DNA of 64,000 nucleotides. Source: a virus (Duplodnaviria; Heunggongvirae; Uroviricota; Caudoviricetes). The notes beneath the pieces are model-generated. The model saw nothing but the letters and a program-made list of their open reading frames with translations. It was not told where the DNA came from and made no database searches. The position numbers and the translations under genes are program-made. The DNA lies in the IMG/VR virus record IMGVR_UViG_3300025389_000018; one strand, written 5' to 3'. Below are positions 1,049 through 32,181 of this stretch, one piece after another. Positions within the stretch are counted from its first letter, which is position 1. Each line of letters opens with the position of its first letter.

Positions 1049-1528
1049 TTGAATTTAGATGGAGTACTTAGTTCGGAACAAGGAGAACCAATCCGAGCAG
1101 GAGTGCAACTTTACTACGCCCTAAATAATGGTCATAGAGTCGCTCTTATGACTAGCCGTAATCAAGCGGATGCTGAGCATTGGTTAGCTTCTCATGGCAT
1201 TGTCGGTTATGACGACCTCATTGATTCTTCTTTTCATCTAGAGGGAGAAAACCTAAAGAAGCGTCAATTTACTCTCTCACGTTCACGGGCGCCAATCGAA
1301 CTCTATGTAGACTCCGACCCCCACATTTGTGCATGGGTATTTGAAGAACAACGAGTCCCAATTCTGATGTTTGGAAGTCCTGTTTACTCCAAAATTGAAA
1401 ATCGTCCTAGTGCACCTAGAAGTGTTCGTAAATGGAGCGAGATTGAAGAGTCTGTAACTAGAGTCAACCTAGCAAAGGTACGTGAGTACACCAAGACTGC
1501 CCCAGAATTGGGAGAGTGGAGTGACTAA
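1049..1528 (+). CDS. Hypothetical protein (TTG start; weak HAD-like N-terminal LDGVL with the nucleophile Asp missing)
   Basis: A 159-aa ORF with a non-ATG start. It is tightly packed between neighbouring genes. Confidence 0.35.
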   Translation: MNLDGVLSSEQGEPIRAGVQLYYALNNGHRVALMTSRNQADAEHWLASHGIVGYDDLIDSSFHLEGENLKKRQFTLSRSRAPIELYVDSDPHICAWVFEEQRVPILMFGSPVYSKIENRPSAPRSVRKWSEIEESVTRVNLAKVREYTKTAPELGEWSD

Positions 1529-8300: not shown

Positions 8301-8578
8301 CTAAGCCACTTCCCTTTCTATAACTATTCCATTGGACACTACCGATATAGGGCTTTCATACCCTGTTCCATCGTACATCTTGCCACCCCATACCCCGTAT
8401 ATCCCTCTCTGAGTCTTGGCATAGTTGCTACACGCTTTTAGTAAGTGGCATTTCCTACATATACTTTTCGCTAATTTGATTTCTTCTTTACGCCTAAAGT
8501 TATTCTTTGGGAAGAATACTTCGGGGTCTGTCTGAGCGCATAGTTGAGTTCCGTCATACGGGCTGTCACCACTCATAG
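8301..8578 (-). CDS. whiB: WhiB-like Fe-S transcription factor
   Basis: Four Cys (C..CRKC..CHLLKAC) plus the signature GVWGG turn. The start is refined to an internal ATG with AAGGAGAG RBS (ORF-track start 8654). Confidence 0.7.
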
Positions 8579-8835
8579 TCTCTTGCCCTCTCCTTCCGTT
8601 CTTCTGACTTAGACTCCACTTCATCAAGTGAAACCACCTTAAAGATAAAGTCATAGTTCTCTTTGTTATTCATTTTTTCTAACTTTTTTGCTTCTGACTT
8701 TGCTTTCCTTTTAGTCTTAAATAGCCCATACCAGCAGAGACAATCGGGGTCTGAGAGAGCCGTTGTTATCTCTATACACCACTTGAATTTGCGCTTATAC
8801 ATTTGTATCCACCTCTTTGCTATTAGGTACTGCAT
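8566..8835 (-). CDS. Hypothetical basic protein
   Basis: Lies in the leftward operon with short overlaps to its neighbours. Confidence 0.45.
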   Translation of the reverse strand: MQYLIAKRWIQMYKRKFKWCIEITTALSDPDCLCWYGLFKTKRKAKSEAKKLEKMNNKENYDFIFKVVSLDEVESKSEERKERARDYEW

Positions 8836-9315: not shown

Positions 9316-9555
9316 TTAATTTTCCCATAGTAAGTTTTCTAGTATTAAATCTCTTTCTCTTTCTATAAGCCAATCTTCTGCCGCTTTTTGTGCTTCTGCC
9401 TTTGTTCTGTATCTGTAATCATCTCCGTCTATGAAGTTGTCACTCTCGAAGTATTGCCATGCCCAGTTGCCTTCGCCATTTTTGTACACCCATACATCTT
9501 CTTTAGGAGAGGCATAGACACTTAGTCCATTTAGTTCTTTCTTATGAAACTTCAA
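9316..9555 (-). CDS. Hypothetical protein ending ...ENLLWEN (LW-tail family member)
   Basis: Its C-terminal LLWEN resembles the tails of the 21-23 kb cluster. Confidence 0.5.
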   Translation of the reverse strand: MKFHKKELNGLSVYASPKEDVWVYKNGEGNWAWQYFESDNFIDGDDYRYRTKAEAQKAAEDWLIERERDLILENLLWEN

Positions 9556-10177
9556 CTACTTCTCCTTCCCATAGACTTTTCTCCAACTCGTTTAATTCCT
9601 TTTCTTCTTTTGCGTTTTCTTCTGTGCAACTTCGGCATACATCAGGTGTCTCTGTACCTTCACATTCCACACTCTCATAGCACTCGTCACACCAATGGTG
9701 GTCTCCTTCAAGTTCTAGTCGCTTCTCACAAATAGCACTACTAAGTGAGCCATCTATGGCAGAAGTTTCCTTTCCATTTTTGTAAGTGTTTTCTCCCCAA
9801 TAGTCACTTCCACTCTCATAGTATTGGTAAAAGAGTTTCAATTTAGGATACTTAGTTGCGAGTGCTTCAATGACCTGTACAACAGGGCTCCAAGCGGTAT
9901 CGAAAGTGTAAATAAGCAAACCTTCTTCTAGCCAACTACTTTTTCTATCAACATCACATACATCCCACTTACTTCCCCAGTTTTCTATGCTCCACGAATA
10001 CCACTCACCATCTTTTTCAACTGGTCTAGGGATTATTCTTTGGCAGGAGAAAGGAGAGGCAGAGTGTTGTTCTGTTTCCTCACTTTGAGTGAGTTCTACA
10101 TACTTCATCAACTTAGTAAGTTCTCTAGGAGAACCTTCTATCTTTAAGAAGTTGTTACACCAATTTGGCATTTCCAT
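9542..10177 (-). CDS. Hypothetical protein with N-terminal MPNWCNNFL motif and C-terminal Cys cluster
   Basis: A 211-aa ORF with HHWCDECYESVECEGTETPDVCRSC. Confidence 0.55.
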   Translation of the reverse strand: MEMPNWCNNFLKIEGSPRELTKLMKYVELTQSEETEQHSASPFSCQRIIPRPVEKDGEWYSWSIENWGSKWDVCDVDRKSSWLEEGLLIYTFDTAWSPVVQVIEALATKYPKLKLFYQYYESGSDYWGENTYKNGKETSAIDGSLSSAICEKRLELEGDHHWCDECYESVECEGTETPDVCRSCTEENAKEEKELNELEKSLWEGEVVEVS

Positions 10178-10589: not shown

Positions 10590-11169
10590 TTGTCTCTCTC
10601 TTTTCTAGGTAACTTATTTTCTTATAGACTTTTGATTTTCCTTCAGACGTTTTATAGCCGTACCGAACGAAACGTGACTCTAAGGCAGAAGTAGTTACTC
10701 CTAATGATTTTGCTAACGAATAGCAACTAACTCCTTTTTGCACCTGCTCCCACGCTAACTTAGTGAATAGTTCTGCTTCTTCTCGGTAATTGGTACTTGT
10801 GCTTCTTACTAACTGCGCTTTGTTACGAAGTTCTATTAGTTGTGCTAAAACTTCAGGTTCTACTTCTAACATCTTCCTGTCATAGATAGGAATAGAAGGC
10901 ACTTGCGGTACTCGGTACTTACCCAACACCTTCTCTCTAATTACAGGGTCATTAGCGATTGGCTCATTCACCAACTGTCGGATTCTTTCGCGTGTAACAC
11001 CTATCACATCAGCCATAGATTGAAGTGTCCAGCCTTCATCGCGTAGTGCCTTTAAGTAAGCCTTCTTCTCTTGTAAGTCTAGGTTCTGAATTACACCTAG
11101 TATTCCTTCAGGAAGTTTCATATCAGACTTCTTTTTCTTTGTTCCTACTTGCACTTTATGTATTGTCAT
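10579..11169 (-). CDS. DNA-binding protein with two HTH motifs (sigma-70 region-4-like)
   Basis: GWTLQSMADVIGVTRERIRQL resembles a region-4 HTH. A second HTH is YSLAKSLGVTTSALESRF. Confidence 0.5.
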   Translation of the reverse strand: MTIHKVQVGTKKKKSDMKLPEGILGVIQNLDLQEKKAYLKALRDEGWTLQSMADVIGVTRERIRQLVNEPIANDPVIREKVLGKYRVPQVPSIPIYDRKMLEVEPEVLAQLIELRNKAQLVRSTSTNYREEAELFTKLAWEQVQKGVSCYSLAKSLGVTTSALESRFVRYGYKTSEGKSKVYKKISYLEKRETNEQ

Positions 11170-11512
11170 TATTTTTTACCTCGGTATCCCATAGTTGTTC
11201 TTCGTTGTGTTCTAGTTCCTGTTGCTTTCGTAGCCAAGTATTCCATGTACTTAGTGTCGCATTTGCTATTGCAGTTCCGATTGCAGTGCTGTTGAATACA
11301 TCGTCAATTCTAATAAGTATTTCGTCTACGATTTTGTTAGGTAAGGAATTGGGAGATGGATATTTAGCGTGTAGTTCTTTATCATCAGTCATTTCAACTG
11401 TCGTATCGAATACGTCATTTTTATCTAGTATATGCACAGCAAGAAGTTCGTCTAAGTTATCTCCATACCATATATTGAGTCTTTCAATTAACTCCTTCGC
11501 TGTGTATATCAT
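11156..11512 (-). CDS. Hypothetical protein
   Basis: Operon context. Confidence 0.45.
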   Translation of the reverse strand: MIYTAKELIERLNIWYGDNLDELLAVHILDKNDVFDTTVEMTDDKELHAKYPSPNSLPNKIVDEILIRIDDVFNSTAIGTAIANATLSTWNTWLRKQQELEHNEEQLWDTEVKNNDNT

Positions 11513-11906
11513 CTTGTGTCTCCTTATCCCATAGTTCTTCTTCTTCTACTTCGTCTGCATTTCTTTTTTTGGATTCAGATATTTCAGTTGAGATGTAGTC
11601 GCTTTCAAGTTCATTGAACGCTTCATATAAATAATCCCAACTACTGTCGTAATTGAATTTTTGCATGACTTCCTTGAACATCTCTACTGTGTAGTCTTTT
11701 TTTGTAAAGTTATGTTCGTGATAACTTTCTTCTGCTTGTAGTGCTTGAGTTTCATAATCTGTCACTACTGCTATTGCAATTACTTCATCCTCTTTATAGT
11801 GTCGAGAGAGGAATTCTGTAACTTCTTTTCGCGTGTTGATATACATTTCATCCTCTCCTTCTTTGCGGTGTAAGTCGTTCCCAAGTAAGTCGTTTCCAAG
11901 CCACAC
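11484..11906 (-). CDS. Hypothetical acidic protein
   Basis: Operon context. Confidence 0.45.
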   Translation of the reverse strand: MWLGNDLLGNDLHRKEGEDEMYINTRKEVTEFLSRHYKEDEVIAIAVVTDYETQALQAEESYHEHNFTKKDYTVEMFKEVMQKFNYDSSWDYLYEAFNELESDYISTEISESKKRNADEVEEEELWDKETQDDIHSEGVN

Positions 11907-12456: not shown

Positions 12457-12600
12457 TTATTGTTCCCATAACTGGTTCTCAATTAGTTCTAGTTCAATTT
12501 CCATAGCGTTTACCCAGTCATGGCTTTCGACAGTGCATACTTCGCACATTCCATCTATTAGGTTACGTGTAACCTTTCCGCACATATAGCACTTAGACAT
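12457..12600 (-). CDS. Small zinc-ribbon protein (CYMCG...CEVC) ending ...ENQLWEQ (LW-tail family; not in ORF track)
   Basis: ATG at 12600 preceded by TAAGGAGCAAT. It encodes 47 aa. Confidence 0.4.
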   Translation of the reverse strand: MSKCYMCGKVTRNLIDGMCEVCTVESHDWVNAMEIELELIENQLWEQ

Positions 12601-13880: not shown

Positions 13881-15896
13881 TTATGAATTGGCTACTAGGT
13901 TTCGTGCGATTGCAATTCGTACAAGTTCCCGACCCAATATCGTGATGTCTTTTGCAGACTTGATTTGTGTCAGTAACTCAAACGAGTGGCGATAGTGTTC
14001 GAGATGTTGAGCAGAGATAGTTCCTTGCTCTAAGTAGGCTTGGCAAGTTAGAACGCCAGCATTACGCATTTCCGTAACTGCTTGCTCTCCTTCTTTTGAG
14101 TCCCACATTCCATCCGTAATCATAAATAGAATACGGATTGGCTTATCGGTTTCAGCGAGAACACGTTTCGCGTAGAGAATTGCTTCGTGAGGATTGGTTC
14201 CCCCGTCAGCACCAGCGTCACGAATTGAATTTCCAGCCTTATCCTCAGCACTGTAAAGAAGTGTCGTGTCATAATCGAATAAGCAGACAGTTGTTCGGGC
14301 TTCGACTTCTTCAAGTGCCTTCTTAATTGCCCACATACTTTGATATGCCATGTCTGCATTATTTCCTGCCATTGAACCCGACTTATCTAGCAAGATAACG
14401 GCTTCAATAGAAGTTACATCAGAACGACCTTCTTGCCATTCATCGAAACAAGTATCGAAATCCTCATTATTGAGATAACGATTGACATTCAAGCGACCTG
14501 TATCAACTTCTGACTCCCATGCAGGGTCAAACTTTGCGCGTAAGCGTTCGAGTTCACGACCAAACGCTTTAGAAGTTAGCACCAGTTCAGGATTAGCAGG
14601 TACTTCTCTGTGTCGGGCTTTAATTGGCGTAGTTACATTTCCGCCATTTAATCCAACATCAACACCCATCTGCTTTGCGATTTGATTTATCTCTTTAGAT
14701 AACTCGCGCAAGGCTTCATCCATAATGCCATCAAGTATTTGTGATACCTGTTGATTAGTGCCTGTTGTACCTTTATCTGTTCCTATTCCCTTTGCAGGAT
14801 TGGATGGAGAAGGTTCAAGGTCTAAGTCAATCTCTTCGTCATAGTCCCATTCCTCATCTTCCTCATCAAACGGCGATGGTGTAGTGCTGTCAGGATTTTT
14901 TACTGCGGATTTATCTTCTTTAGAAGTTTCCTCAGTTACATCTCCCTCAGTTACATCGCCATCAGTTGTATCAGTTGTATCTTCATCAGTTGCAGGAGAG
15001 AGTTCTATATCTACAACAAGAACGGGCTTTGGATTGTCCTTGCTCTTACTCCTTCCTAAGTCGCTCTCTTGCTGTGCGCGACTAACTGGTCGGACACTAC
15101 TGCTATCTACCCCTTGTGTTGGGCGAGTGCTATGACCCATAGGGTCACTAATGCGAACTATAACTGTCTGACCACCTTGACCATTACTACTGCTCTGTGT
15201 CGGTGCTAACTGCTTTATCAACTCGTCTAACTCTTTGATAAGTACCTTCGCTCTTTCCGTTGCTGTTCGTACTTCTTCAATAGAACCTACGAATATCAGT
15301 TGTCGGTATTCATCAACGATGTTATAGATTGCTTCTACATCTTGTGGTCGTTGGTAGTTATCAACTGCTAACTGTTGGATTTCAGTAGGCAGATACCTAC
15401 GACCAGTAATAAGAGGAAACGCTGTTGGTAGTGCTTCCTCGTTTTTAATGATGTAGTTAGTAACTACGGCTGTTAGCCACTTAGCAATACTTGGCAAGTA
15501 ACCGACTAACAAGGTTTCGATTCGGTTGTCCTCTAGCACGTTAAACGTATTCCATAGGTCATTCTGTTGTACCCATGCTATGAAAGGCGTACCAGTTCTA
15601 GGCGTATAGCGGAGATGTCCTAACTCATGGAAATCAAGTCCTTGCAGTTCCAAGATAGTTTCAGCAGTAATCTCGTCATGCAACTCAGCCAAGTTAAGCC
15701 ACATTTGCGTACTGCTTGACCATGCAGGAGATTCGATTAAAGGTTCATCTACTACACTTACCGAGATTTTTCGACCTGTCAAAACACTATTAGTGCGAGC
15801 GAATACACTCGCAAGTTTAGTGATGTGACTGCGCTTTAATTGCTGTAGTTCTTTTGCTTTGTCCTCTTGGCTTTGCTCTTTAATGAACGCTCTCAT
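13881..15896 (-). CDS. von Willebrand factor A domain protein (CobT-like partner of the MoxR ATPase)
   Basis: vWA MIDAS motif ILLDKSGSM near the C-terminus, with an acidic low-complexity linker (TDEDTTDTTDGDVTEGDVTEE). It sits adjacent to the AAA+ gene. Confidence 0.8.
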   Translation of the reverse strand: MRAFIKEQSQEDKAKELQQLKRSHITKLASVFARTNSVLTGRKISVSVVDEPLIESPAWSSSTQMWLNLAELHDEITAETILELQGLDFHELGHLRYTPRTGTPFIAWVQQNDLWNTFNVLEDNRIETLLVGYLPSIAKWLTAVVTNYIIKNEEALPTAFPLITGRRYLPTEIQQLAVDNYQRPQDVEAIYNIVDEYRQLIFVGSIEEVRTATERAKVLIKELDELIKQLAPTQSSSNGQGGQTVIVRISDPMGHSTRPTQGVDSSSVRPVSRAQQESDLGRSKSKDNPKPVLVVDIELSPATDEDTTDTTDGDVTEGDVTEETSKEDKSAVKNPDSTTPSPFDEEDEEWDYDEEIDLDLEPSPSNPAKGIGTDKGTTGTNQQVSQILDGIMDEALRELSKEINQIAKQMGVDVGLNGGNVTTPIKARHREVPANPELVLTSKAFGRELERLRAKFDPAWESEVDTGRLNVNRYLNNEDFDTCFDEWQEGRSDVTSIEAVILLDKSGSMAGNNADMAYQSMWAIKKALEEVEARTTVCLFDYDTTLLYSAEDKAGNSIRDAGADGGTNPHEAILYAKRVLAETDKPIRILFMITDGMWDSKEGEQAVTEMRNAGVLTCQAYLEQGTISAQHLEHYRHSFELLTQIKSAKDITILGRELVRIAIARNLVANS

Positions 15897-15909: not shown

Positions 15910-17250
15910 TTAGTTTATGTCAGAAGTAACTGGTGATTGAAACTCTTGCTCTAGTTGCAAACGGTGTGCCTCAAACAGCAGGCGAACACTTGCGCGTTCT
16001 TCATCGTTAAAGTTCATCAACGCATTTTCCAATGCAAACTCAAACCCAAGTTCGTGAGCGAGTTCTTGGAAGTTCTTTAGCCAGCGTAATGAGATAGGCG
16101 TTGTATAAGTTCCCTTGATACTGTCTGCTCTCATGTCGTTAGCAATTTTCAGAAGTGTTGGTGACTTAATGATTTTCTTTTCGATAGTTGGGTCGTACTC
16201 AAACTTCAATTTGATACCGAAACGGTCTAGGAAGGCTTCATTCAACTTATTGCTTCCTCGGTATCCGTTGTTATATGTAGCGACCACCATGAAGTCAGGA
16301 TGTGCAGGTACTACTTCGCCACCATTCTCAATGATTGAGAGAGTGCGGTTTTGTAGTAAATCTTGAAGTCGTTGCAGGATTTTGGTAGGAGCGAAATCAA
16401 CTTCATCTAGGATAACAATGTCTCCACGCTTTACTGCTTGCGTGAGAACGCCATCTATCCAAACTGGCTTGCCAGTTTCAGAGTCAATGATTGTTTTACC
16501 AATAAACTGCCCAACTTCAATTCCCATCGAACAGGAGAACACATAAACGCCTTGACCTTCTTTATGCCCGAAGTTAAGTGCGCTAGTTGTTTTTCCTGTA
16601 CCAGCATGACCTTCGATAAGTACGAATTTCTTTAGTCGCTTAGCAGTTGAGAACATCTTGTGTTCAGTAACACCGCCAGCGAAAGTACGCTCAATGTAAT
16701 CTCCTACAAGTTCTTTAGAAGGAATACGGATTACATAACGACCAATGACTTCATCATCTAATTCCTCATAGCGTGGGGCTTGCGAAACTTCGATAGTGTC
16801 GTTGATTACTAGCGGATTTTTTACTGCGGTGGCACTCTTGTCACTTCTGCCATCACTACGGTATTTCGCTAGGGATTGTGGGTCTTGCTCTATCATGTCG
16901 TGTACCTCTTTCAGTAGTTCGGTTAGTGTTCGGTTGCTTGCTTCTTTATGGCGTAAGCCGTACTGCTTTGTTAGTTTTTGGATTAAAACATTTGGGCGTT
17001 GATTCTTTTGTAAAGAATATATGTCGTTATCAGTAAGTGGTGTAGAGAGAACCTCACCGACAATAACGTGTTCATCATGGATGGCGATTACTTCATCATA
17101 ATCAGAGTCAGTCCATGCGTTAGTCTCCCCACGTCCCCCATTAGTAGTGCGAGTCCATGCGTAGTTCTTACCTTCGTGAGTTGCTAGTAGTACCTGTCGA
17201 ACGGTATCTACTGTGTCGGTCTGCGCTGTGATTAGGATTGCTTGTGACAT
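15910..17250 (-). CDS. AAA+ ATPase, MoxR/CobS-like, with ~190-aa N-terminal extension
   Basis: Walker A IEGHAGTGKTT and Walker B IVILDEVDFAP. It pairs with the vWA gene. Confidence 0.8.
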   Translation of the reverse strand: MSQAILITAQTDTVDTVRQVLLATHEGKNYAWTRTTNGGRGETNAWTDSDYDEVIAIHDEHVIVGEVLSTPLTDNDIYSLQKNQRPNVLIQKLTKQYGLRHKEASNRTLTELLKEVHDMIEQDPQSLAKYRSDGRSDKSATAVKNPLVINDTIEVSQAPRYEELDDEVIGRYVIRIPSKELVGDYIERTFAGGVTEHKMFSTAKRLKKFVLIEGHAGTGKTTSALNFGHKEGQGVYVFSCSMGIEVGQFIGKTIIDSETGKPVWIDGVLTQAVKRGDIVILDEVDFAPTKILQRLQDLLQNRTLSIIENGGEVVPAHPDFMVVATYNNGYRGSNKLNEAFLDRFGIKLKFEYDPTIEKKIIKSPTLLKIANDMRADSIKGTYTTPISLRWLKNFQELAHELGFEFALENALMNFNDEERASVRLLFEAHRLQLEQEFQSPVTSDIN

Positions 17251-19799: not shown

Positions 19800-19914
19800 A
19801 GCAGAAGCATACCTCCCCTATCAAATAAGAGTTCAAACCTCAGAGATAAGGCAGTAGCCATAGAATCACCCTGACAGATTCGCTACCTGTTCAGCAAAGC
19901 CTCTCAGCAATGGG

Positions 19915-19930
19915 GGGCTTTGTGCTATCC
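19915..19930 (+). promoter_or_regulatory. Repeated element GGGCTTTGTGCTATCC, copy 1 (3' half of a hairpin with CAAAGCC at 19895-19901)
   Basis: Four copies lie within the ORF-free GC-richer region 19875-20990. Confidence 0.5.
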
Positions 19931-20405
19931 TTTAATAGCATGAAACTGCTCAATCCTCCGTACTGTCCAGAAATGCACTAGTACGGCAGCTTTAGGCCCC
20001 AAAAGAGTTTTAACCGTTTTCGCTGGACGTGTTGACTCCTTTGGGGCCTTCTGTTATTCTCTTACTATTGCCGTGACTAGCAATCGCTACCCTGAGCGTG
20101 ATAATGGGTGTAGGCATAGCTCCCGAATGAGTGCCTGTACTAAACCTTACAGATGTGTCCAGATAGAGGCACGTGGTTGCTCCTACTCGGAGGATTTAGG
20201 GTATAGAGTCGGTAAAGGGCGGACTAGTCATCCGCTGCTTTGCACCAACTGACTAGGCCGAACCTAGCAGTAGAACTTCATATGTTGCACTCTCAGGTTT
20301 GAGAATGCTGCATACGTCTTTCGAGTACAGGTCCCACTGCAAGAACCACACGTAGGCGCCGTATGGTGCACAGCGACGAAAGTTGCCAACAATACGTGCT
20401 TGAGT

Positions 20406-20422
20406 GGGACTTTGTGCTATCC
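20406..20422 (+). promoter_or_regulatory. Repeated element GGGACTTTGTGCTATCC(TGACAC), copy 2
   Basis: Same motif. The TGACAC extension is shared with copy 4. Confidence 0.5.
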
Positions 20423-20620
20423 TGACACCAAGGCCTGTTTTCTAGAGTGCGCGGGTCTTACCCATCCTATAAGGAGAAGAAAGAAATTTCTGAACCGTAT
20501 AGTGGTACCCTTGGGGTATCGTCTGAATGACAACGAATCTGACTGGCAAACGGTTAAGGTCGCTCCTGAGACACCAGTTAGCTGCCAAAGCCCTCGTAGG
20601 TACACTTGACCAATCTACGG

Positions 20621-20637
20621 GGGCTTTGTGCTAATAT
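20621..20637 (+). promoter_or_regulatory. Repeated element GGGCTTTGTGCTAATAT, copy 3 (hairpin partner CCAAAGCCC at 20586-20594)
   Basis: Variant tail. Confidence 0.45.
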
Positions 20638-20819
20638 AGAGCGATTCGGCACCGTATCGTAGATTGCATGGAAACATGCAGGTACTAACGCGGTATGCAG
20701 CATAGTCGACAATGACTGCACGGTTCCCAGAGAAATCAGGTCATAAATCTCTGAGCTACATTGCCCTCAATGTCTGCGTATGGAAACTTACGCACCCGCT
20801 CCGCGGCTTAAGCCATTGA

Positions 20820-20836
20820 GGGCTTTGTGCTATCCT
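20820..20836 (+). promoter_or_regulatory. Repeated element GGGCTTTGTGCTATCC(TGACAC), copy 4 (hairpin partner AAGCC at 20810-20814)
   Basis: Same motif. Confidence 0.5.
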
Positions 20837-20992
20837 GACACTGGTGGCAACAGGTACTACCTGGGCTCTCTCCGCAAGGACACGCCCTCACCCCACCGTT
20901 GGAGAGCGATTCTAGTTGCCAGATGCAAATAAGGCCTCCCGTCCTGGGCTCGACGTTAAAGGCGCCCATAACTTTTGTGATAACGTCTTCCT

Positions 20993-21298
20993 ATGAGCTT
21001 ACTTCCACCTGTAGTGGCTGTACTAGATGAGAAATTTAATCTTGGAATACCTGGCTCTTATGACGAGTGGTACAAGATAACTACGGATGTACTTAATGAG
21101 CCAAACGGGTACGTAGTGTGGCACTACCCGCCAGAAGATAAAGGCATGGGGAAGCCGTACAACACCTTCACTCTCTTACCAGGAATGGTAATGAGACTTG
21201 GAATGGGGACACTCCATCGGGAGGTAGTCTTCCGCCGTGGGTTTCCACTGGGGAAAGTGGTAACTTTAGAAGAAGAAGAAACTCTTTGGAACTCATAG
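20993..21298 (+). CDS. Small hypothetical protein ending ...EEEETLWNS (LW-tail family)
   Basis: First gene of the rightward early array. Confidence 0.5.
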   Translation: MSLLPPVVAVLDEKFNLGIPGSYDEWYKITTDVLNEPNGYVVWHYPPEDKGMGKPYNTFTLLPGMVMRLGMGTLHREVVFRRGFPLGKVVTLEEEETLWNS

Positions 21299-21310
21299 AA
21301 GGGGGAATAT

Positions 21311-21697
21311 ATGAACTCAAATTACAACGCACTACAGGGGTATAACGTAGTCACCTCTAATTCTTACATTAACTCTCCGCGCACTAGAAGAGTTATAGAA
21401 GTTACGTTAGATGAAGAGTTTGAAATACCGCAATACGGATTCTTTGTCCTTCAACTTTTGGTGGAGGAAGATGCGCACTACACACTCTCGCTTGTACAAC
21501 TCGCCGTCAATGTGCCTGCAGCAACACAAAAAGGCTCTTTTAATCTTGGTGTGTTTCCTGATGCCAAAGTTCTCTCTTGCTCAAGAATTCCAAAAGGGGT
21601 AGATAAGTACACCTTTTACATATGGGAGAACGCGATTGTATGTGACGTAAGTAGGTCGTCCTATGACACCTACGAAGGGATGTTGTGGCAGCAATGA
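21311..21697 (+). CDS. Small hypothetical protein ending CDVSRSSYDTYEGMLWQQ (LW-tail family, CD[LV][TS]xS subfamily)
   Basis: RBS GAAGGGGG. Confidence 0.5.
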   Translation: MNSNYNALQGYNVVTSNSYINSPRTRRVIEVTLDEEFEIPQYGFFVLQLLVEEDAHYTLSLVQLAVNVPAATQKGSFNLGVFPDAKVLSCSRIPKGVDKYTFYIWENAIVCDVSRSSYDTYEGMLWQQ

Positions 21698-21957
21698 GCC
21701 AATATAACCAAATGACAGTAAAGCTAGACGAGCCTTTTATTGTAGGTGTCTATACATGCACATTCAAGCTTCGTTACAAGCCAGATAATAAGAAAGCTCT
21801 CATATTAACAGTTATGCCAGATAAGCGGACTAGGTTCTGCTCACCAAAAAAAGATGCCACAACATACACAGTTGAAGTTAATGGGCAGCTTGTCACATGT
21901 GATTTAACCCAATCTGCAAATGATGACATAGATGCTCCATTATGGGATGTGATGTAA
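21694..21957 (+). CDS. Small hypothetical protein ending TCDLTQSANDDIDAPLWDVM (paralog of neighbours)
   Basis: ATGA overlap with the upstream stop. The ORF-track start at 21685 is GTG. Confidence 0.5.
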   Translation: MSQYNQMTVKLDEPFIVGVYTCTFKLRYKPDNKKALILTVMPDKRTRFCSPKKDATTYTVEVNGQLVTCDLTQSANDDIDAPLWDVM

Positions 21958-22256
21958 TGGCTATCTCAACCTACCAATACTCTTCTAGCTCTAGCTATTG
22001 GATAGAAAAAGATGTTCTTTTAGACCAGGGGTTTGATTTTGCTGGAGATAATGGACTCTATGTTTTCTCCAAAACAGTCTCTAATGACGGCACCACTGGT
22101 TTGAGGCTAGAAAACCTTCGTACCAAAAAAGTGGAGCTATATTCCATAACTAGAGACTCGGAGTTCTATGTGCTCCGTATAGGGTCTCATGCAGTTAGAT
22201 GCGACCTTACAAAGTCCACCTATGACAAATCAGAGAAAATTTTGTGGGAGTCATAA
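21957..22256 (+). CDS. Small hypothetical protein ending RCDLTKSTYDKSEKILWES (paralog)
   Basis: TAATG overlap. The ORF-track start is 21942. Confidence 0.5.
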   Translation: MAISTYQYSSSSSYWIEKDVLLDQGFDFAGDNGLYVFSKTVSNDGTTGLRLENLRTKKVELYSITRDSEFYVLRIGSHAVRCDLTKSTYDKSEKILWES

Positions 22257-22258
22257 AG

Positions 22259-22432
22259 ATGTGCTATGGTATATATACAAAGGCGGGAAGCTTCGAAAAC
22301 GGAAAACCTTTGTCGTCCTTGGGCCACGACGTAAAACTTGCTGACAGAGAAGTCTCCATGGGGTTCACTAAGTTGAAGCGAAATGGGGACTTCTCTTCTC
22401 ATTACCGAGAAAAAGGAATAGGTAATGATTGA
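22259..22432 (+). CDS. Small hypothetical protein (57 aa)
   Basis: GGGAG RBS 8 nt upstream of the ATG. Confidence 0.35.
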   Translation: MCYGIYTKAGSFENGKPLSSLGHDVKLADREVSMGFTKLKRNGDFSSHYREKGIGND

Positions 22433-22688
22433 CAATCCCGCGTTAGAACGACCCAATGTAAGTCTAAACGTATTGGAGTCTGGTCAGGTAGGACCGTTGT
22501 TCCACCATGTTTTTGCCTCTACTGGAACTATTCTCACTGCCTATAGTGCAGCAGAGTTCAGAGAACAACTCATGTACGAAGGACGGAAGTTAGCAGAAGC
22601 ATTTCAGGAGTGCTCAAGGCTACTGCTTGACCTGGAGTTAGAGAGGTCAGAAGAAGACCGGTTAGATGAAAAGTTATGGGAATCATGA
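22425..22688 (+). CDS. Small hypothetical protein ending ...RLDEKLWES (LW-tail family)
   Basis: RBS AGGAATAGG. Confidence 0.5.
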   Translation: MIDNPALERPNVSLNVLESGQVGPLFHHVFASTGTILTAYSAAEFREQLMYEGRKLAEAFQECSRLLLDLELERSEEDRLDEKLWES

Positions 22689-22704
22689 ATAACGGGAGGA
22701 AATC

Positions 22705-23046
22705 ATGAGGTTATTTGATGTACTAGACATTGTCAGCGCTATCGTGAGTTACATAGGTGTTGGAGCTATAGTCTTTAAGGAAACATTCCCAAAACGAGTG
22801 GCTTACCACAAGAGTAAGTTTAGATATCTAAAATGTGAAGATTACACAGCTGAATTCATCATTGAGTCAACAGTAGTTGCAGCATTCTGGCCTTTGGTTC
22901 TACCTGCAATTGGTGTTAAAAAAGCCTGGAAGTATCTAGGAAAAGTCCCAACAAAAAAGTTTAATCAATGGGCAGATAGTATCTACAACCCAGAATCCTC
23001 ATTAACCCAAGACGAGATGAACGAAAGGCTCCTCTGGTCAAGCTAG
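22705..23046 (+). CDS. Small membrane-associated hypothetical protein ending ...NERLLWSS (LW-tail family)
   Basis: RBS GGGAGGAAA, with hydrophobic segments. Confidence 0.5.
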   Translation: MRLFDVLDIVSAIVSYIGVGAIVFKETFPKRVAYHKSKFRYLKCEDYTAEFIIESTVVAAFWPLVLPAIGVKKAWKYLGKVPTKKFNQWADSIYNPESSLTQDEMNERLLWSS

Positions 23047-23125: not shown

Positions 23126-24034
23126 ATGATAGCTTGTATTTTTATCGTAGTGTTCGCACTACTTGGAATAACAGCATTTATCTTTGGCATTAAAGAGCCA
23201 TCTGACTCTGATGCAAAGAAGTTTTTACTTATCAGTGGAGCTGTAGTCTTTGTGCTTTCTTTGCTCGGACTATTTGGGATGACATTCACTGTAGTTCAAG
23301 CCACTGAGGTTGGAGTACCAGTCTCATTCGGTCACGTTGGCGCTCCACTCGACCCAGGTATTCACTTTGTAGCTCCTTGGACTAGTGTGGATTCATACCC
23401 AACTCGCCCTATAACTGTTCAGTTGGCAGGTGCGGATAAGGTAATCGCTCGAACCGCAGATGCTGGTCAAATGTCTGTAGAAATCGCGGCGCGGTGGCAC
23501 GTAGAGAAGCAAGATGCTTCAAAGCTTTACTATCAGTCGCGCACAGGTGACCTGAACTCTATTAGTGACAACATCGTACTTCCTAACTTGCGCCAAGCAG
23601 TTGGTCAGATTTACTCCGTAACAGGAAACCTAGATGCCATCTCTAACCGCGATAAAGTTGCCGAAGACATCCGTATCCAACTTAATAAGCAGTTGGTGCC
23701 TTATGGAATTGCAATTGATACGGTAAGTATGCGCTCAGTAGAGCCAGACGCCACAACAGCTGCCACCATCTCTCAGTACGCTAGCCAACAACAGGCTACC
23801 CGTATTGCTCAGGAGGCTACAAAGACCGCTACATATGAAGCACAGCGCCGCTTGATTGAAGCCAAAGGTCTTGAGGCTGCTGGTAAGGCTGCTGCTAATC
23901 TGACACCGTCACAGCTGGAGTCTGTATGTATCCAGGTTTGGCAACAGACAATCACTGCTGGAATCAAGGTTGGAGTACCTGTTTACACCAATCCTTGCGC
24001 TACAACCGCTCAAGTGATTGTAAACAGTAAGTGA
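23126..24034 (+). CDS. SPFH/band-7 (stomatin/HflK-C-like) membrane protein
   Basis: Two N-terminal TM helices followed by an SPFH-like core (EVGVPVSFGHVGAPLDPGIHFVAPW...). Confidence 0.65.
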   Translation: MIACIFIVVFALLGITAFIFGIKEPSDSDAKKFLLISGAVVFVLSLLGLFGMTFTVVQATEVGVPVSFGHVGAPLDPGIHFVAPWTSVDSYPTRPITVQLAGADKVIARTADAGQMSVEIAARWHVEKQDASKLYYQSRTGDLNSISDNIVLPNLRQAVGQIYSVTGNLDAISNRDKVAEDIRIQLNKQLVPYGIAIDTVSMRSVEPDATTAATISQYASQQQATRIAQEATKTATYEAQRRLIEAKGLEAAGKAAANLTPSQLESVCIQVWQQTITAGIKVGVPVYTNPCATTAQVIVNSK

Positions 24035-24300
24035 AAACCAGAATAAAGGTTCTAATCGCTGGGGCTGCTATTACGGCAGCCCTAGTATTAGGCTTTCTAG
24101 TTGTAAAGGGCGTAGAGGCTATATCTCATTGGATGAGCTATGAGAGCCCAACAATATGCGTGAAGTCTCACGACGTCGATAATTCTCATTGGGGCTATGG
24201 CTTAAAGATGGATGGCAAGTTTGGATTTGGTTGGATAATTGACATTCAAAATGTCTGCGACAAGACTGCACCTAATCCAAAATACAAAGGTAATCAATAA
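24031..24300 (+). CDS. Small single-pass membrane protein, 2 Cys, ends ...KGNQ
   Basis: GTGA overlap with the SPFH gene. It is a paralog-like match to 24750-25025. Confidence 0.45.
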   Translation: MKTRIKVLIAGAAITAALVLGFLVVKGVEAISHWMSYESPTICVKSHDVDNSHWGYGLKMDGKFGFGWIIDIQNVCDKTAPNPKYKGNQ

Positions 24301-25025: not shown

Positions 25026-25219
25026 GCCCCGACGAGGAGTTAGTGCTCGCTATTCGAACAGAGCTCCTTCGTGTGATAAGTCCTGAGAAACTTGAAAAGT
25101 GGTGGCACACGCCTCTTCCACATTTTGACAACTTAACTGGAGAAGAGCTCATCAATTACGATGAAGGGGAAGAGTTGTTAATGTACGTAAAGACCTACAC
25201 AGAATCGGACTTCTCATGA
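25022..25219 (+). CDS. Small acidic hypothetical protein
   Basis: ATGA overlap. Confidence 0.4.
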   Translation: MSPDEELVLAIRTELLRVISPEKLEKWWHTPLPHFDNLTGEELINYDEGEELLMYVKTYTESDFS

Positions 25220-25545
25220 CCAATATCTCAACTCTAACTCCAGAAGAAATAGTAGAAAAAGCTATAGCCATTATCGAGTATGAGCTCAAACAATGTGAGT
25301 CCATGTTAGCTACCTTAAAGGTATTTCATGAATTAGGCACTCTTAAGGGCGATACAAACCAAACTCAGAGATTCCTAAACTCATGGCGTGCACACAAAGA
25401 CTTTTTTGATAGGCATACAGGAAAGAGATATGATGGATTACTTCGTTGTTGGACTTGTTGGGCGGAAGGGGAGGGTGAGTTCACCAAGTACCCCTGCCCC
25501 GAACTACTTACCCAAGCCACAATTATCTTAGGAGGAGAAGAATAA
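25216..25545 (+). CDS. Small protein with C-terminal CWTCx9YPCPE zinc knuckle (CxxC-YPCP family)
   Basis: ATGA overlap. Confidence 0.45.
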   Translation: MTNISTLTPEEIVEKAIAIIEYELKQCESMLATLKVFHELGTLKGDTNQTQRFLNSWRAHKDFFDRHTGKRYDGLLRCWTCWAEGEGEFTKYPCPELLTQATIILGGEE

Positions 25546-25657: not shown

Positions 25658-25942
25658 ATGACCGCACTCAACTACACCCATGAACAACGTATATCGCAAA
25701 TAAACAAATGGATTAAAGAGTGGCGCAAAGCAAGAAAATCTGCCGCAAAAATAAATAATGATGGCGACCAAATTGTTGATATGGACATCGTTATTGCCTC
25801 TCTCATAGCCAACCGTAATACGTTGGAGAAGCATAAAGTCGGAATAAACGAAGCCGAAAACCATTGTCGCGCTTGCCTAGATGAATTCCCATGCCCTACT
25901 TACCTATCCGTAGCCATACCTTTAGAGGAAGTGATGGAGTGA
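25658..25942 (+). CDS. Small protein with CRACx4FPCPT (CxxC-YPCP family)
   Basis: Preceded by a possible 38-aa membrane ORF at 25546-25662. Confidence 0.45.
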   Translation: MTALNYTHEQRISQINKWIKEWRKARKSAAKINNDGDQIVDMDIVIASLIANRNTLEKHKVGINEAENHCRACLDEFPCPTYLSVAIPLEEVME

Positions 25943-27138: not shown

Positions 27139-27483
27139 ATGAATGGTGAATCTTTGTCTGAAGAAAAATTAACCGAAATAGCTAACCAAGCTCCTTACTC
27201 AGAGCCTGTACGAGTGGAGGACATAGTTAAGGATAATGTCGAACACATTCAAGAATTGATTGCTATAGCAAAAGCCTTCCCTAATCATGAAGGTGAAGTT
27301 CTAGAGTTAGATGACAAGTTGAAACCTTGGCTAGCTCTTGAAGGCATTTTGTCGATAGAAAGATGGAATGAAGACCGAGTCTCTTTAGAAGACTGCTACA
27401 TAGCTGAGGGCGTTAATACTGCATTAGAAATGATACGTAGAGAATTAGCTTATATGTGGGGAATTGAGGAGCCCTCAAAATGA
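27139..27483 (+). CDS. Hypothetical acidic protein (start refined; AAGGAG RBS)
   Basis: ORF-track start is 27088. Confidence 0.45.
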   Translation: MNGESLSEEKLTEIANQAPYSEPVRVEDIVKDNVEHIQELIAIAKAFPNHEGEVLELDDKLKPWLALEGILSIERWNEDRVSLEDCYIAEGVNTALEMIRRELAYMWGIEEPSK

Positions 27484-27722
27484 CCAAAGAGGAACTGCTA
27501 GAAAAAGTGGATAAAGTTCTAGATGATGCTGAATACGCTAAAGCTTGCGATGGATGGGACAGTATTGCGCCTATTAAAGCCCTTCGCGCAGTGATAGAGC
27601 TGCATAGCCCTTGGACTAGCCCAACAGGTACTTGGTGTCAACATTGTGAGGATGTATTTGATGCTTCAGAGCGATACCCCTGCCCCACTATCCAAGCAAT
27701 TGAAAGGGAATTTAATGGATAA
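27480..27722 (+). CDS. Small protein with WCQHCx9YPCPT (CxxC-YPCP family)
   Basis: ATGA overlap. Confidence 0.45.
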   Translation: MTKEELLEKVDKVLDDAEYAKACDGWDSIAPIKALRAVIELHSPWTSPTGTWCQHCEDVFDASERYPCPTIQAIEREFNG

Positions 27723-28736: not shown

Positions 28737-29147
28737 ATGAGAAATACTTGCGCTTTGTGTGGGCACAAAATAGATACTCTCTGTGGCTCGTCTTCAGTTA
28801 GGGATGTCTCTAATGAGATTTTGTACCTTTGCCATCCAGTAATAAGTGAGAATCATATGGATTGCTACCACCTATGGACGGTGTACAACAAGAGGCCTGT
28901 AGACTTAATAAATTTAGAGCCACGCTTAGAAGCCCCACCAGTTACTTATGCAGAGTTAGTGGCTTCTATAAATGAGACTGAGAGATTAGCACATGTTGTC
29001 TATACCTCTGCCGTTTTTGGGGCGATAAAAGCTGCCGTAAGACTTCATGCCCCAGAGATGTTCGAGGGCAGGTTATGCTGCCCTGAGTGTATGGGAACTG
29101 ACTACCCTTGCAACACCATCAGAGAATTTATGAGGGAAATGGGATGA
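28737..29147 (+). CDS. Cys-rich protein with CPECx4YPCNT (CxxC-YPCP family) and N-terminal CALCGH
   Basis: Several Cys pairs. Confidence 0.5.
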   Translation: MRNTCALCGHKIDTLCGSSSVRDVSNEILYLCHPVISENHMDCYHLWTVYNKRPVDLINLEPRLEAPPVTYAELVASINETERLAHVVYTSAVFGAIKAAVRLHAPEMFEGRLCCPECMGTDYPCNTIREFMREMG

Positions 29148-29252: not shown

Positions 29253-29417
29253 ATGAAATGCGATATTTGTTCTGAGAAGTCTGAAGACTTCCTTTTTGTA
29301 GTAGAAGAGTCCGATACGTTCAGTACTCCTACTAACTTCGAGTACTGCTGTGTACTCTGTGAAGATTGTGTAGAGGAGTTTGGCGGAATCCACATGATTG
29401 ACTACTATGTCAGCTAA
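29253..29417 (+). CDS. Small zinc-ribbon protein (CDICS...CVLCEDC; not in ORF track)
   Basis: GGAGATAG RBS. It encodes 54 aa. Confidence 0.4.
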   Translation: MKCDICSEKSEDFLFVVEESDTFSTPTNFEYCCVLCEDCVEEFGGIHMIDYYVS

Positions 29418-29757
29418 TACTTGCTCTCCTGGGAGTGTTCCTAATCCCTTAAACATTTCCCCCTACTACTTGAACCCAACTATCAACAACCCTTCTGTAT
29501 GGCATACAGGAGGAGGCGGTACCCCCACAAGCCCTGTAGGGGCAGGAGGAAGGGGTGGTCTCGTAACTACTACGACTAGCACTACTCCTTACACTGGGTA
29601 CGTCTACCCAAATACACCCACTATAACTACCTCTCCCAACACACTTTACCCAGTTACTAGCCCTATAACTAACGGATTCGACGTGAACGATGCCATGCGT
29701 ATAGCCAGAGAACAGATGGAAATTATTTTGGAAGAAGAAAAGCTGTGGAACAGCTAA
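29407..29757 (+). CDS. Thr/Pro-rich small protein ending ...EEEKLWNS (LW-tail family)
   Basis: Start refined to an internal ATG. Confidence 0.45.
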   Translation: MSANTCSPGSVPNPLNISPYYLNPTINNPSVWHTGGGGTPTSPVGAGGRGGLVTTTTSTTPYTGYVYPNTPTITTSPNTLYPVTSPITNGFDVNDAMRIAREQMEIILEEEKLWNS

Positions 29758-29915
29758 CTACACCGACACAGGGGCACAACATCCCTAATTGGGCTGTTAC
29801 CTCCTCGGAAGAATGTCTCCTACACCAAGTACGTGAAGCGACGGATAAACTCCGTATCTCCATTAGGGAAGACAAGGAAGACAAGCTCCTTGAACAGGAA
29901 CTGTGGAATAGTTAA
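29745..29915 (+). CDS. Possible small protein ending ...EQELWNS (LW-tail family; GTG start overlapping the previous LWNS codons)
   Basis: The open frame has no ATG. The GTG is preceded by GGAAGAAGAAAAG. Confidence 0.3.
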   Translation: MEQLTTPTQGHNIPNWAVTSSEECLLHQVREATDKLRISIREDKEDKLLEQELWNS

Positions 29916-30065
29916 AGATGCGTTAACTCTTTAACGATGTCACAATTAGGTCACTATGGCTAAATGTATTAAGTGTGACCACGACATCATCTCAGGAGTC
30001 TGCGAAGTAGACACCTGTAAGTGCATTTGCGAGATTCCAGTGACTGCGGAGTTTAGGGACGGGGC

Positions 30066-30242
30066 ATGAGCAAAGTACAGAGGGTTCAAGAGCTTCGCCG
30101 CTCTAATGCGGCTACACCTGTTCGCAATAAGACTCGCTATAACCGAACCGACTTCAAGCAAGAAATGCAATTGCTTCGTGAAGAGCAATTCCACGTAGGT
30201 GAGGCTCCAGAAGGAACCGTAGCTGGAGCAAGCAAGCAATGA
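30066..30242 (+). CDS. Small basic hypothetical protein (58 aa; not in ORF track)
   Basis: ATGA overlaps at both ends. Confidence 0.35.
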   Translation: MSKVQRVQELRRSNAATPVRNKTRYNRTDFKQEMQLLREEQFHVGEAPEGTVAGASKQ

Positions 30243-30460
30243 GTGCAGAGGATAACCTAGGGCTACAATGGCGTGGTACACGCACTACCGTAGGAACTAT
30301 CCATTCAATGTCTGCTACTCCTTACAATTACATCGCTCCAGTATGGCACGATAACAAGAAGCAGTGGAAAGTAATGGGAGGCTTAGGAGATGGCACTATC
30401 CACCCCACTTTGCGAGATGCCAAACAGCATGTTGAAAGCCTGCATAGGAGAAGTCAATGA
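30239..30460 (+). CDS. Small hypothetical protein
   Basis: ATGA overlap. Confidence 0.4.
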   Translation: MSAEDNLGLQWRGTRTTVGTIHSMSATPYNYIAPVWHDNKKQWKVMGGLGDGTIHPTLRDAKQHVESLHRRSQ

Positions 30461-30729
30461 CCCTGCCATCCAAGAAGAAAAAAGTGTACGGGCCGTACAA
30501 AGATAAGAACAAGGGCGGGCGTACAATGATGGTGGAGTATGACCCTAAGACTCAGAAGACTACCTCTACTCATGAAGCCCGTTACAAGAAAGAAAAATCT
30601 CTTGGGCGCAAACTTGGTAAAGATGAGCATGTTGACCATAAGGACAACAACAAGCACAACAACGGTTCGAAGAACCTTCAAGTGATGAAGGCATCGAAGA
30701 ATATCGGCAAAGGAAATAAGCACCGCTGA
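30457..30729 (+). CDS. Small HNH-motif nuclease-like protein
   Basis: EHVDHKDNNKHNNGSKNLQVM resembles the HNH core. Confidence 0.45.
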   Translation: MTLPSKKKKVYGPYKDKNKGGRTMMVEYDPKTQKTTSTHEARYKKEKSLGRKLGKDEHVDHKDNNKHNNGSKNLQVMKASKNIGKGNKHR

Positions 30730-31605: not shown

Positions 31606-32181
31606 TTGACCACAATCGCAGCAGTGCAAGGCGACGGATGGGTCGTAATGGGTGCAGACACCCAGGGGACCTATAACGAATACCGCAAAATTTTCATGAA
31701 AGATGACAAGGTCGTAGAAAATAACGGCATTCTAATTGCTGGTTGCGGTATTGGACGAGGCATGAATCTCCTACAGCGTGGCTGGAAAGCCCCTAAGCCT
31801 CGCACCAAGTTGAGTCCAGAGAAGTTAGATAATTGGATGGTCAACACCTTCCTGCCCCAGATGAGAGACGTATTCATCAAGGGCGGTTATGACATGAAGG
31901 ATGACGGAGACTATGCCAAGTACGAGAACGTCTTCCTAGTCGCTGTTCAAGGCCATGTATACATAATTGATGAGGACTACTCTATTGACAGGGACGCCAG
32001 AAACTATGTAACGTCTGGCAGTGGAGGAGACTTCGCACAAGGTTCCCTTTATAACCATGGACCTAAGCTATTTACTGACCTTGAGTTTGCGAAAGAAGCA
32101 ATGAAGATGGCTGTAGATGCAGCTAAAGAGTTTGACAGCAACTCAGGTGGAGAAACAAGAATTTACGTACAACTAGCCTAA
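31606..32181 (+). CDS. HslV-like Ntn-hydrolase peptidase (proteasome beta-subunit fold), TTG start
   Basis: N-terminal (M)[21 protein letters not shown] aligns to E. coli HslV [32 protein letters not shown] motif corresponds to HslV GSGGPYA. AGGAGG RBS. Confidence 0.7.
   Translation: [191 protein letters not shown]

Follow-up and report, generated by a model that had tools for sequence, protein, structure and literature searches.

Unrelated Small Proteins of a Freshwater Actinophage Clade Share a C-terminal Leu-Trp Tail That Probably Serves as a Docking Motif

IMG/VR record IMGVR_UViG_3300025389_000018 describes a tailed virus (Caudoviricetes), and the 64,000-nucleotide stretch of its DNA that was analyzed here is called the window. 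This report is concerned with a tandem array of seven small open reading frames (ORFs) at positions 20993-23046, six of which end in nearly the same C-terminal peptide, and with the occurrence of that peptide on many other proteins of the virus and its relatives. The window is part of a ~99-kb tailed phage genome that has been assembled repeatedly from freshwater bog-lake metagenomes. The array had been pointed out in an earlier sequence-only reading of the window, and the claims made there are taken up below where the results bear on them.

The Gene Array

All seven ORFs of the array lie on the + strand. ORF1 (20993-21298) encodes an orphan protein of 101 amino acids that ends ..EEEETLWNS, with the motif EETLW at 21275-21289. 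It is followed by three paralogs, ORF2 (21311-21697; 128 amino acids, tail ..YEGMLWQQ), ORF3 (21685-21957; 81-90 amino acids, tail ..DAPLWDVM) and ORF4 (21942-22256; 99-104 amino acids, tail ..SEKILWES). ORF5 (22259-22432, with an alternative start at 22244) encodes 57 amino acids and is the only member of the array without the tail; it ends ..KGIGND. The last two members are ORF6 (22425-22688), a helical orphan of 87 amino acids that ends ..LDEKLWES, and ORF7 (22705-23046), a protein of 113 amino acids with hydrophobic, membrane-like segments and the tail ..NERLLWSS. Independent public gene calls on identical contigs agree on the array genes, and they place the likely start of ORF3 at 21694 or 21712 and that of ORF4 at 21957.

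The six endings quoted in the sequence-only reading all match these proteins. The CD[LV][TS]xSxxDx5LW block that it reported in ORF2-4 is also present, and the three proteins are paralogous over their whole length, beyond the tail (blastp E values of 3e-8 and 4e-7). Its description of the Trp as the antepenultimate residue is correct for five of the six tailed proteins; in ORF3 the Trp is at position -4.

Pfam and PHROGs searches of the array proteins gave no match. A profile built from ORF2-4 found only the query phage itself among 5.8e9 proteins, and among 1.84e9 representatives it found the query phage plus weak matches to repeat proteins (DUF4369 and BspA-type leucine-rich repeats), which are regarded as pattern matches to the CDLTxS segment and not as homologs. 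When all of the tail carriers were clustered into families, ORF1, ORF2-4, ORF6 and ORF7, as well as two further carriers at 29398 and 29745, were singletons confined to the query phage. Furthermore, the related locus L024 lacks the entire 20.9-29.3 kb block. Because its members are singletons and the block is absent from L024, the array is best read as a lineage-specific expansion of orphan genes that bear a clade-wide tag.

Upstream of the array, a 1.1-kb ORF-poor spacer (19860-20990) separates two divergent operons. It contains four + strand copies of GGCTTTGTGCTATCCT, at 19916, 20408, 20622 and 20821 (span 19906-20836; spacings of 492, 214 and 199 nucleotides), and each copy comes after a G-rich hairpin. 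The repeat has the form of an extended -10 promoter (TGnTANNNT). Its last copy is ~160 nucleotides upstream of ORF1. As judged from these features, the repeats are likely to be the promoter context of the array, and they may represent three short non-coding transcripts plus the array promoter. Rfam and transfer RNA (tRNA) scans of the spacer were without a match.

Definition and Frequency of the Tail

The motif can be written as [E/D]-x-x-L-W, and the W usually has exactly two polar residues after it, sometimes three; MEIILEEEKLWNS is an example of the tail peptide. To count tails in the window, we used a gene model of 119 genes (19,239 residues) and required LW with one to three residues after the W. 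Ten proteins have such an ending, and in all ten an Asp or Glu is located three residues before the Leu. Composition-preserving resampling gives an expectation of 0.50 LW tails and 0.07 ExxLW tails (Poisson P of ~2e-10 and 9e-19, respectively). Ten of the 30 LW dipeptides in the window are in the tail register. The sequence-only reading, which judged the endings to be far beyond chance, therefore understated the case.

It also missed four tail proteins and three proteins in which the motif is near the terminus. Two of the four are encoded on the - strand, namely a protein of 79 amino acids (9316-9555; tail ..LENLLWEN), whose L-W is kept in 12 orthologs from related contigs, and a zinc-ribbon-like protein of 47 amino acids (12457-12600; tail ..IENQLWEQ). 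The other two are on the + strand: a Pro/Thr-rich protein of ~116-119 amino acids (29398-29757, likely start 29407; tail ..EEEKLWNS) and a protein of 56 amino acids (29745-29915; tail ..LEQELWNS), whose sole plausible start, a GTG, falls within the Leu-Trp codons of the preceding gene. The three near-terminal cases are all on the - strand. They are a DUF1281_C protein (9542-10177; 211 amino acids) with EKSLWEG eight residues from its end, a protein of 118 amino acids (11156-11512) with EEQLWD ten residues from its end, which is conserved in the L024 ortholog, and a probable paralog of the latter (11484-11906; 140 amino acids) with EEELWD 14 residues from its end. In addition, the tail ..EQALWNS is present on a DUF8033 protein whose gene lies 1 kb upstream of the window.

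The bodies of the carriers are diverse and include membrane-like, zinc-ribbon, Pro/Thr-rich, helical and beta-rich proteins. With their tails removed, the carriers share no similarity in blastp comparisons, except for ORF2-4 and the 11156/11484 pair. The same separation of tail and body is seen between phages; the positional counterpart of 29398 in L024 has an unrelated body, yet it ends ..EEELWNS.

Conservation and Structural Context of the Motif

Several observations indicate that the motif is selected at the level of the protein. All six Leu codons are used for the Leu, and all four Asp and Glu codons are used for the acidic residue. In the largest ortholog family, which has 22 members and a mean top-residue fraction of 0.37, the L and the W are the sole invariant columns. 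Among ten DUF1281_C homologs that are 48-57% identical, the L, the W and the E are invariant inside a linker of variable length, and the motif lies 7-21 residues from the C-terminus. In L024 and L025, whose MoxR proteins are ~71% identical to that of the window, the orthologs of the 11156 and 9542 proteins retain L-W between flanks that differ in sequence or contain indels.

The DUF8033 family illustrates how the tail is added to an existing protein. In most homologs the core ends ..SIVRxAIA; close relatives add ..EQ[A/S/Q/G/E]LWN[S/Q], and a homolog at 47% identity adds ..EEQKLWNS. Homologs of intermediate identity have another extension or none, and those of a sister clade (P0009-P0013 and P0017) have a different conserved extension, ..GHDNAKNPDYGIPLGEK, in place of the LW tail; this alternative reads ..PDYGIPLGEK.

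The structural context of the motif was examined in two modelled families. In the AlphaFold2 model of the DUF8033 protein, the core has a predicted local distance difference test (pLDDT) score of ~90, and tail residues 98-113 are below 50. When this model was compared with the PDB by Foldseek, no match was meaningful. In the DUF1281_C model, the motif caps a lone acidic helix (180-201) and is followed by low-confidence residues.

The motif has three positions that are fixed in 68 of the 70 strict tails counted below, and it occurs on unrelated bodies, is found in a flexible context in the two modelled families and is conserved above its flanks. Because all of the Leu codons are used, because L and W are the sole invariant columns in the largest family, and because L, W and E are invariant in the DUF1281_C proteins, we conclude from the sequences that the tail is a short linear motif under protein-level selection. 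This agrees with the sequence-only reading, which had proposed a short linear motif and had named a lack of conservation in homologous phages as the outcome that would speak against it; the tails are conserved in such phages.

Distribution among Related Phages

Related loci were collected by means of the VWA (CobT-like) protein that is encoded in the window. Loci with a VWA protein at least 46% identical to it are called type A (29 loci) and those at 26-42% identity are called type B (47 loci). Strict tails number 70 in type A, where they are present in 27 of the 29 loci (the two exceptions are short fragments), and they are present in none of the 47 type-B loci. After removal of duplicates, tails are found in 70 of 912 type-A proteins versus one of 1318 type-B proteins. 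The W is followed by exactly two residues in 51 of the 70 type-A tails, and the endings include NS, ES, EG, EA, EE, DKE and QQ. The residue at -3 from the Leu is E in 36, D in 32 and another residue in two; it is never Q. If ExxLW is allowed anywhere within the last 30 residues, 96 type-A proteins have it. Single linkage by blastp groups 102 distinct carriers into ~29 families.

Consequently, as far as these loci indicate, the tag marks ~10% of the predicted proteins in the regions sampled around the type-A VWA gene, mainly the products of non-structural genes. The sequence-only reading was right that the tails are real, but they are not a property of the array.

Other ways of looking for the tail give a consistent picture. 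Scanning viral contigs for the pattern EExLWN[S/T] followed by a stop codon recovered related freshwater contigs, and each of these contigs has a second independent, adjacent ORF that ends ..ED[E/Q/A]LWAS. The neighbourhoods of homologs of the SPFH protein of the window (L001-L010) have different upstream genes and no tails, and an integrase-based genome scan found nothing. The whole genome of Streptomyces phage BRock has no tail enrichment and no HslV homolog. As a separate observation, Phe is the last residue of 16 of the 170 predicted proteins of BRock (L019-L021), a 2.7-fold enrichment. A by-eye search of the type-B operons, which have the sister VWA subtype, revealed no different shared tail. 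No phage motif of such a kind was described in the literature that was searched, and we regard the motif as new with respect to the libraries and literature consulted.

The MoxR, VWA and HslV-like Proteins

The VWA protein (13881-15896, - strand) has 671 amino acids and an intact metal ion-dependent adhesion site (MIDAS; D504xS506xS508, T567 and D595), the residues of which (DxSxS..T..D) are invariant among its homologs. The VWA domain, at residues ~490-671, resembles those of ITIH4 and CobT. In the N-terminal part, residues 86-127 contain an invariant HExxH with an E ~28 residues later, and these residues are kept even in homologs that are 30% identical. This suggests a metallopeptidase-like domain, although the domain has no sequence match in Pfam or the PDB. 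The partner of the VWA protein is a MoxR/CobS-like AAA+ ATPase (15910-17250, - strand; 446 amino acids; AAA_5, phrog_249).

In every type-A locus inspected, tail genes are directly downstream of MoxR-VWA in the same operon. The order is MoxR, VWA, a gene for a 195-amino acid protein, further genes, two to three LW genes, a helix-turn-helix (HTH)/sigma-like gene, the DUF1281_C gene, one to three LW genes and the integrase gene.

An HslV-like peptidase gene at 31606-32181 (+ strand), reported by the sequence-only reading as a possible partner of the tail, is confirmed; its product retains Thr1 and matches phrog_1040 (3e-25) and PF00227. Its proposed connection with the tail is not borne out by the comparison of loci. 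Most of 80 loci with HslV homologs have no tails within 10 kb, including loci where HslV is 62-87% identical, and the HslV-like peptidase was rejected as the tail partner for this lack of co-occurrence. Two contigs are especially informative. Contig 3300022592_000003 encodes a ribonucleotide reductase that is 80% identical to that of the window, an HslV that is 63% identical and a VWA protein that is 31% identical, and it has no tails in ~33 kb. Contig 3300032236_000552 has nearly the same values for ribonucleotide reductase (81%) and HslV (63%), but its VWA protein is 51.5% identical and it has seven tails. Since phages at matched core-gene distance differ in VWA and in tails together, the tails follow the MoxR-VWA subtype and not HslV.

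Genome Context and Other Observations

The structural genes in the window include those for the sheath, portal, capsid and terminase. The large terminase gene (41177-43513, + strand) has a LAGLIDADG domain between the N- and C-terminal halves, which is probably an intein or a homing-endonuclease insertion. The window also encodes an integrase, a class II ribonucleotide reductase, a DpdA-like transglycosylase and an SPFH protein, besides the MoxR/CobS-like, VWA/CobT-like and HslV-like proteins described above. A tRNA scan of the window found no tRNA genes, and none of 50,697 phage records matched the region in a blastn search.

The host is almost certainly an actinobacterium, as judged from gene content, because the phage has two WhiB genes and because the relatives of its portal protein are in Streptomyces phages and Nonomuraea prophages. 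One WhiB-like gene is at 8301-8576 on the - strand (Pfam 4e-14); it was missed by the ORF model owing to an overlapping longer ORF (8566-8835). The second is upstream of the window (locus L029, 66-383). Portal proteins of Streptomyces phages in the BRock group share 51-52% identity with that of the window, and those of Nonomuraea prophages share 55-59%. The sequence-only reading had also treated the virus as an actinophage.

Several other genes display patterns of their own. The protein encoded at 1049-1528 (+ strand), upstream of the DpdA-like gene, has 159 amino acids and the C-terminus ..ELGEWSD. Close relatives have orthologs with ..LEFWQD, ..LEFWDD or ..AELWSD at this place, and in the sister clade the ending is ..KR[F/Y/W]E. 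An aromatic residue near the terminus is conserved here in a register other than that of the LW tail, and this could possibly be a separate docking tail. A Cys-rich mini-protein (29956-30069, + strand; 37-42 amino acids, CxxC...CxCxC) adjoins the tail genes. It is conserved in L024 (6355-6477) and L058 (5332-5460), and the proteins of the relatives terminate in ..DEVW. Another C-terminal motif that recurs, ..(Y)PCPTIQAIE+E(L/F)xG, is present on small Cys-containing proteins encoded at 25216-25545, 25658-25942, 27480-27722 and 28737-29147 (all + strand), and also in L005 and L058/L171; these proteins are probably a paralogous family. Two tiny acidic ORFs on the + strand, 51109-51210 and 54413-54517, flank a gene for a collagen-repeat fibre of 1067 amino acids; the second ends ..EEQDVPDEPTPS and the first has a similar end.

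Some genes appear to be mobile. The small HNH protein at 30457-30729 (+ strand) is 97.8% identical to its copy in L024, where neighbouring genes are 60-85% identical, and this suggests recent horizontal spread of a homing-type element. The SPFH/Band-7 gene and the gene for 89 amino acids that follows it (23126-24300, + strand) recur as a block, at 58-76% identity, in other viral contigs (L001-L006), where its neighbours are entirely different and, in L001, the flanks appear to be of bacterial type. The block looks like a mobile module.

Possible Functions of the Tail

Our proposal is that the tail, which terminates an acidic helix or a disordered extension, is a short linear docking motif specific to this clade. 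Small non-structural proteins of the freshwater actinophage group that are otherwise unrelated would have acquired it on repeated occasions, and it would bring all of its carriers to one common receptor. That the tail is a functional docking motif for a common partner is, in our opinion, very probable from its conservation and distribution. Among the partners considered, the phage's own MoxR (CobS-like AAA+) and VWA (CobT-like) pair is the best lead, and a host hub, discussed below, comes next. The MIDAS of a VWA domain typically binds its target through an acidic residue (PMC9976466), and peptide capture by vWA, followed by remodelling of the client by MoxR, has been proposed for vWA-MoxR pairs (PMC7159879). 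An acidic residue, present at -3 in 68 of the 70 tails, next to a hydrophobic pair would fit such a ligand. The acidic residue of the tail would then complete the metal coordination at the MIDAS, and the Leu-Trp would fill a neighbouring hydrophobic pocket; the client could afterwards be remodelled or set free by the ATPase, or the VWA protein could clip it with its HExxH domain.

The choice of this receptor is tentative, and several points weigh against it. Because the tail genes are inherited together with MoxR-VWA, as one cassette and in one clade, their association with VWA is not phylogenetically independent; linkage or a shared host could produce such a pattern, and a clade-specific host partner would explain it equally well. 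Many of the tail genes in and near the window, including the ORF1-7 array, 29398, 29745 and the upstream DUF8033 gene, are outside the MoxR-VWA operon. The strong preference for two residues after the W may mean that the partner reads the end of the chain, a feature that is not needed in a MIDAS ligand, and the by-eye search of the type-B phages gave no sign of a rule of one tail per VWA type. Finally, the residues after the W may be shaped in part by the ribosome-binding site (RBS) of the next gene, and a bias in the Leu codons, described next, leaves room for some constraint at the nucleotide level. The statement as a whole, i.e., a clade-specific docking motif with the MoxR-VWA pair as its receptor, is one that we would put at somewhat less than an even chance. 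The further step, that the tail is a client tag read by a MoxR-VWA machine and that the phage cobS/cobT genes would serve as a chaperone/protease hub in this clade, is possible but rather doubtful.

The other explanations differ greatly in how well they fit. One is that the pattern is a footprint of nucleotide signals, such as the RBS or start codon of the next gene or a terminator, or that it reflects common descent of the carriers. The purine-rich codons after the W (GAG, AAG and GGN) do coincide with the RBS of the next gene where the gene gap is 3-4 nucleotides, YTA-TGG contains ATG, CTA is over-used for the Leu (47% vs 22%), and the 29745 gene appears to start inside the L-W codons of its neighbour. 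However, every Leu, Asp and Glu codon is used in the motif, Trp would serve an RBS no better than Arg or Gly, and in the DUF1281_C genes the motif is invariant 20-60 nucleotides upstream of the stop codon. Furthermore, the sister-clade operons are equally compact and have a single tail in 1318 proteins, and the downstream frame is unbiased, with the -13 nucleotide overlap (18 of 70) near the one third expected by chance. The lack of homology between the carrier bodies argues against common descent. This explanation is largely refuted, and we consider it highly improbable; RBS overlap in tightly packed genes may nevertheless explain the E/K/G/S bias after the W. The packaging signal suggested by the sequence-only reading, taken here as a capsid-targeting signal by which proteins would be loaded into virions and injected, fares no better. 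A tag common to heterogeneous small proteins would suit such a role. Encapsulins, which have the HK97 fold, have C-terminal cargo-loading peptides, and phages do package internal proteins. But none of the ~47 genes in the structural arm (41-64 kb) carries the tail, the carriers are all encoded in the regulatory, replication and accessory arms, near the integrase, WhiB, HTH and MoxR genes, and one of them is membrane-like. From the gene locations, packaging is very unlikely.

The tail could also be a degron that times the destruction of accessory proteins, a reading that deserves somewhat more attention; the protease would be the HslV-like peptidase, the VWA protein through its HExxH domain, or a host system such as Clp, Lon or the proteasome. 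The tail is an exposed terminal peptide on many small and probably transient proteins, the HslV-like protein is an N-terminal nucleophile peptidase with its Thr1 whose gene is 2-3 kb from tail genes in several relatives, and the VWA protein has the invariant HExxH..E. Nevertheless, we regard this explanation as improbable, because HslV-like genes are common in relatives that have no nearby tails, the last residues of known C-terminal degrons are non-polar whereas those of the tails are polar or acidic, HslV has no evident unfoldase partner, and the motif is also conserved at a distance from the end in the DUF1281_C proteins. A better rival to the MoxR-VWA pair is a hub specific to the host lineage, such as the sliding clamp, RNA polymerase or the adaptor of an AAA+ unfoldase, to which the tail would dock the phage proteins. 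The restriction of the motif to one freshwater actinophage clade is what host-specific adaptation predicts, and tails occur in several arms of the genome, beyond the vicinity of MoxR-VWA. Clamp-type motifs are short and often terminal, and an actinobacterial one contains L-W, i.e., the mycobacterial ImuB clamp motif QLPLWG (PMC10421592). The different DUF8033 extension at the same place in sister phages would fit a switch of partner. On the other side, the Gln that defines clamp motifs is present in none of the 70 tails, in which the position is D or E in 68, and the carriers include a membrane-like protein and many orphans, not DNA enzymes. A host hub would also demand a difference in host for the tail-free phage at similar core-gene distance. 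Docking to a host hub is thus a possibility that we hold with some doubt.

Why the Tail Matters

Small orphan genes fill phage genomes, and in the sampled regions of this clade one in ten proteins shares the tag; a partner that reads the tail peptide could link dozens of orphan families with a single pathway in one step. The tagged genes of the array are all orphans, and they illustrate how new genes can enter an existing network through the gain of a tail. The motif is also a simple sequence marker for the clade. Phage cobS and cobT genes are widespread and are usually listed as cobalamin-related auxiliary metabolic genes. If the MoxR-VWA pair is the receptor, the tailed proteins would be the first concrete set of clients for these genes in phages, and they would offer an example of a MIDAS adaptor that reads a linear tag. 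In the chaperone or protease hub considered above, the clients to be activated, assembled or cleared would be a rapidly evolving collection of at least 12 small proteins for host takeover, and an orphan gene that gained the tag would thereby become functional.

Comparison with Known Systems

The sliding-clamp motif (QL[SD]LF, or QLPLWG in ImuB) is nearest to the tail in sequence. It has five residues with a Leu and then an aromatic residue, is often terminal, lies in a flexible region and brings many unrelated proteins to one hub. The phage tails have this Leu-aromatic pair as an invariant L-W, but position 1 is D or E in 68 of 70 and never Q, two trailing residues are strongly preferred and the carriers are not replication or repair proteins. 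The tip of the single-stranded DNA-binding protein SSB (DDDIPF) and the tails of T7 gp2.5 and gp4 are likewise portable docking peptides that combine an acidic stretch with hydrophobic and aromatic residues at the C-terminus, and in T7 two different proteins share a tail for one partner. There the aromatic residue is the last one and its carboxylate is recognized, whereas here the W is followed by two or three, or up to 21, residues, and the carriers are far more numerous.

The ligand peptides of VWA/integrin-I MIDAS domains and the clients of MoxR-VWA chaperone pairs (NorQ-NorD, CbbQ-CbbO, CobS-CobT, RavA-ViaA and the vWA-MoxR ternary systems) share with the tail an essential acidic residue in an exposed peptide. 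As in the window, the same operon encodes a MoxR ATPase and a receptor-type protein whose MIDAS is intact, and the coupling of many different proteins to one chaperone pair would be a further likeness. However, the known clients are single enzymes, the MIDAS does not require a near-terminal register, and binding of the tail by the phage pair is a proposal from sequence. We know of no MoxR-VWA system with an [E/D]xxLW tag or with a dozen small clients.

The HbYX motifs of proteasome activators and the C-terminal tails of HslU dock into proteasome and HslV rings. These are also hydrophobic-aromatic-x termini, often after acidic residues, and the phage does encode a proteasome-like peptidase; but HbYX has a penultimate Tyr, where the tail has a Trp at -3 or -4 and no Tyr, the carriers are small proteins that are not ATPases, and they do not co-occur with the HslV-like gene. 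The ssrA-like degrons require a non-polar end such as LAA, from which endings such as NS, ES, EG, EA, EE, DKE and QQ differ. Encapsulin cargo peptides and the T4 capsid-targeting sequences are short terminal peptides common to heterogeneous proteins as well, but they are unrelated in sequence, the tailed proteins are encoded outside the structural module, and the T4 signal is N-terminal and cleaved.

In conclusion, the tail falls outside the clamp, SSB/T7, HbYX, ssrA and cargo-peptide classes because it lacks at least one of the tested defining features of each. By its sequence features, it would appear to resemble the known hub-docking terminal peptides in function while being a member of none of the systems compared.

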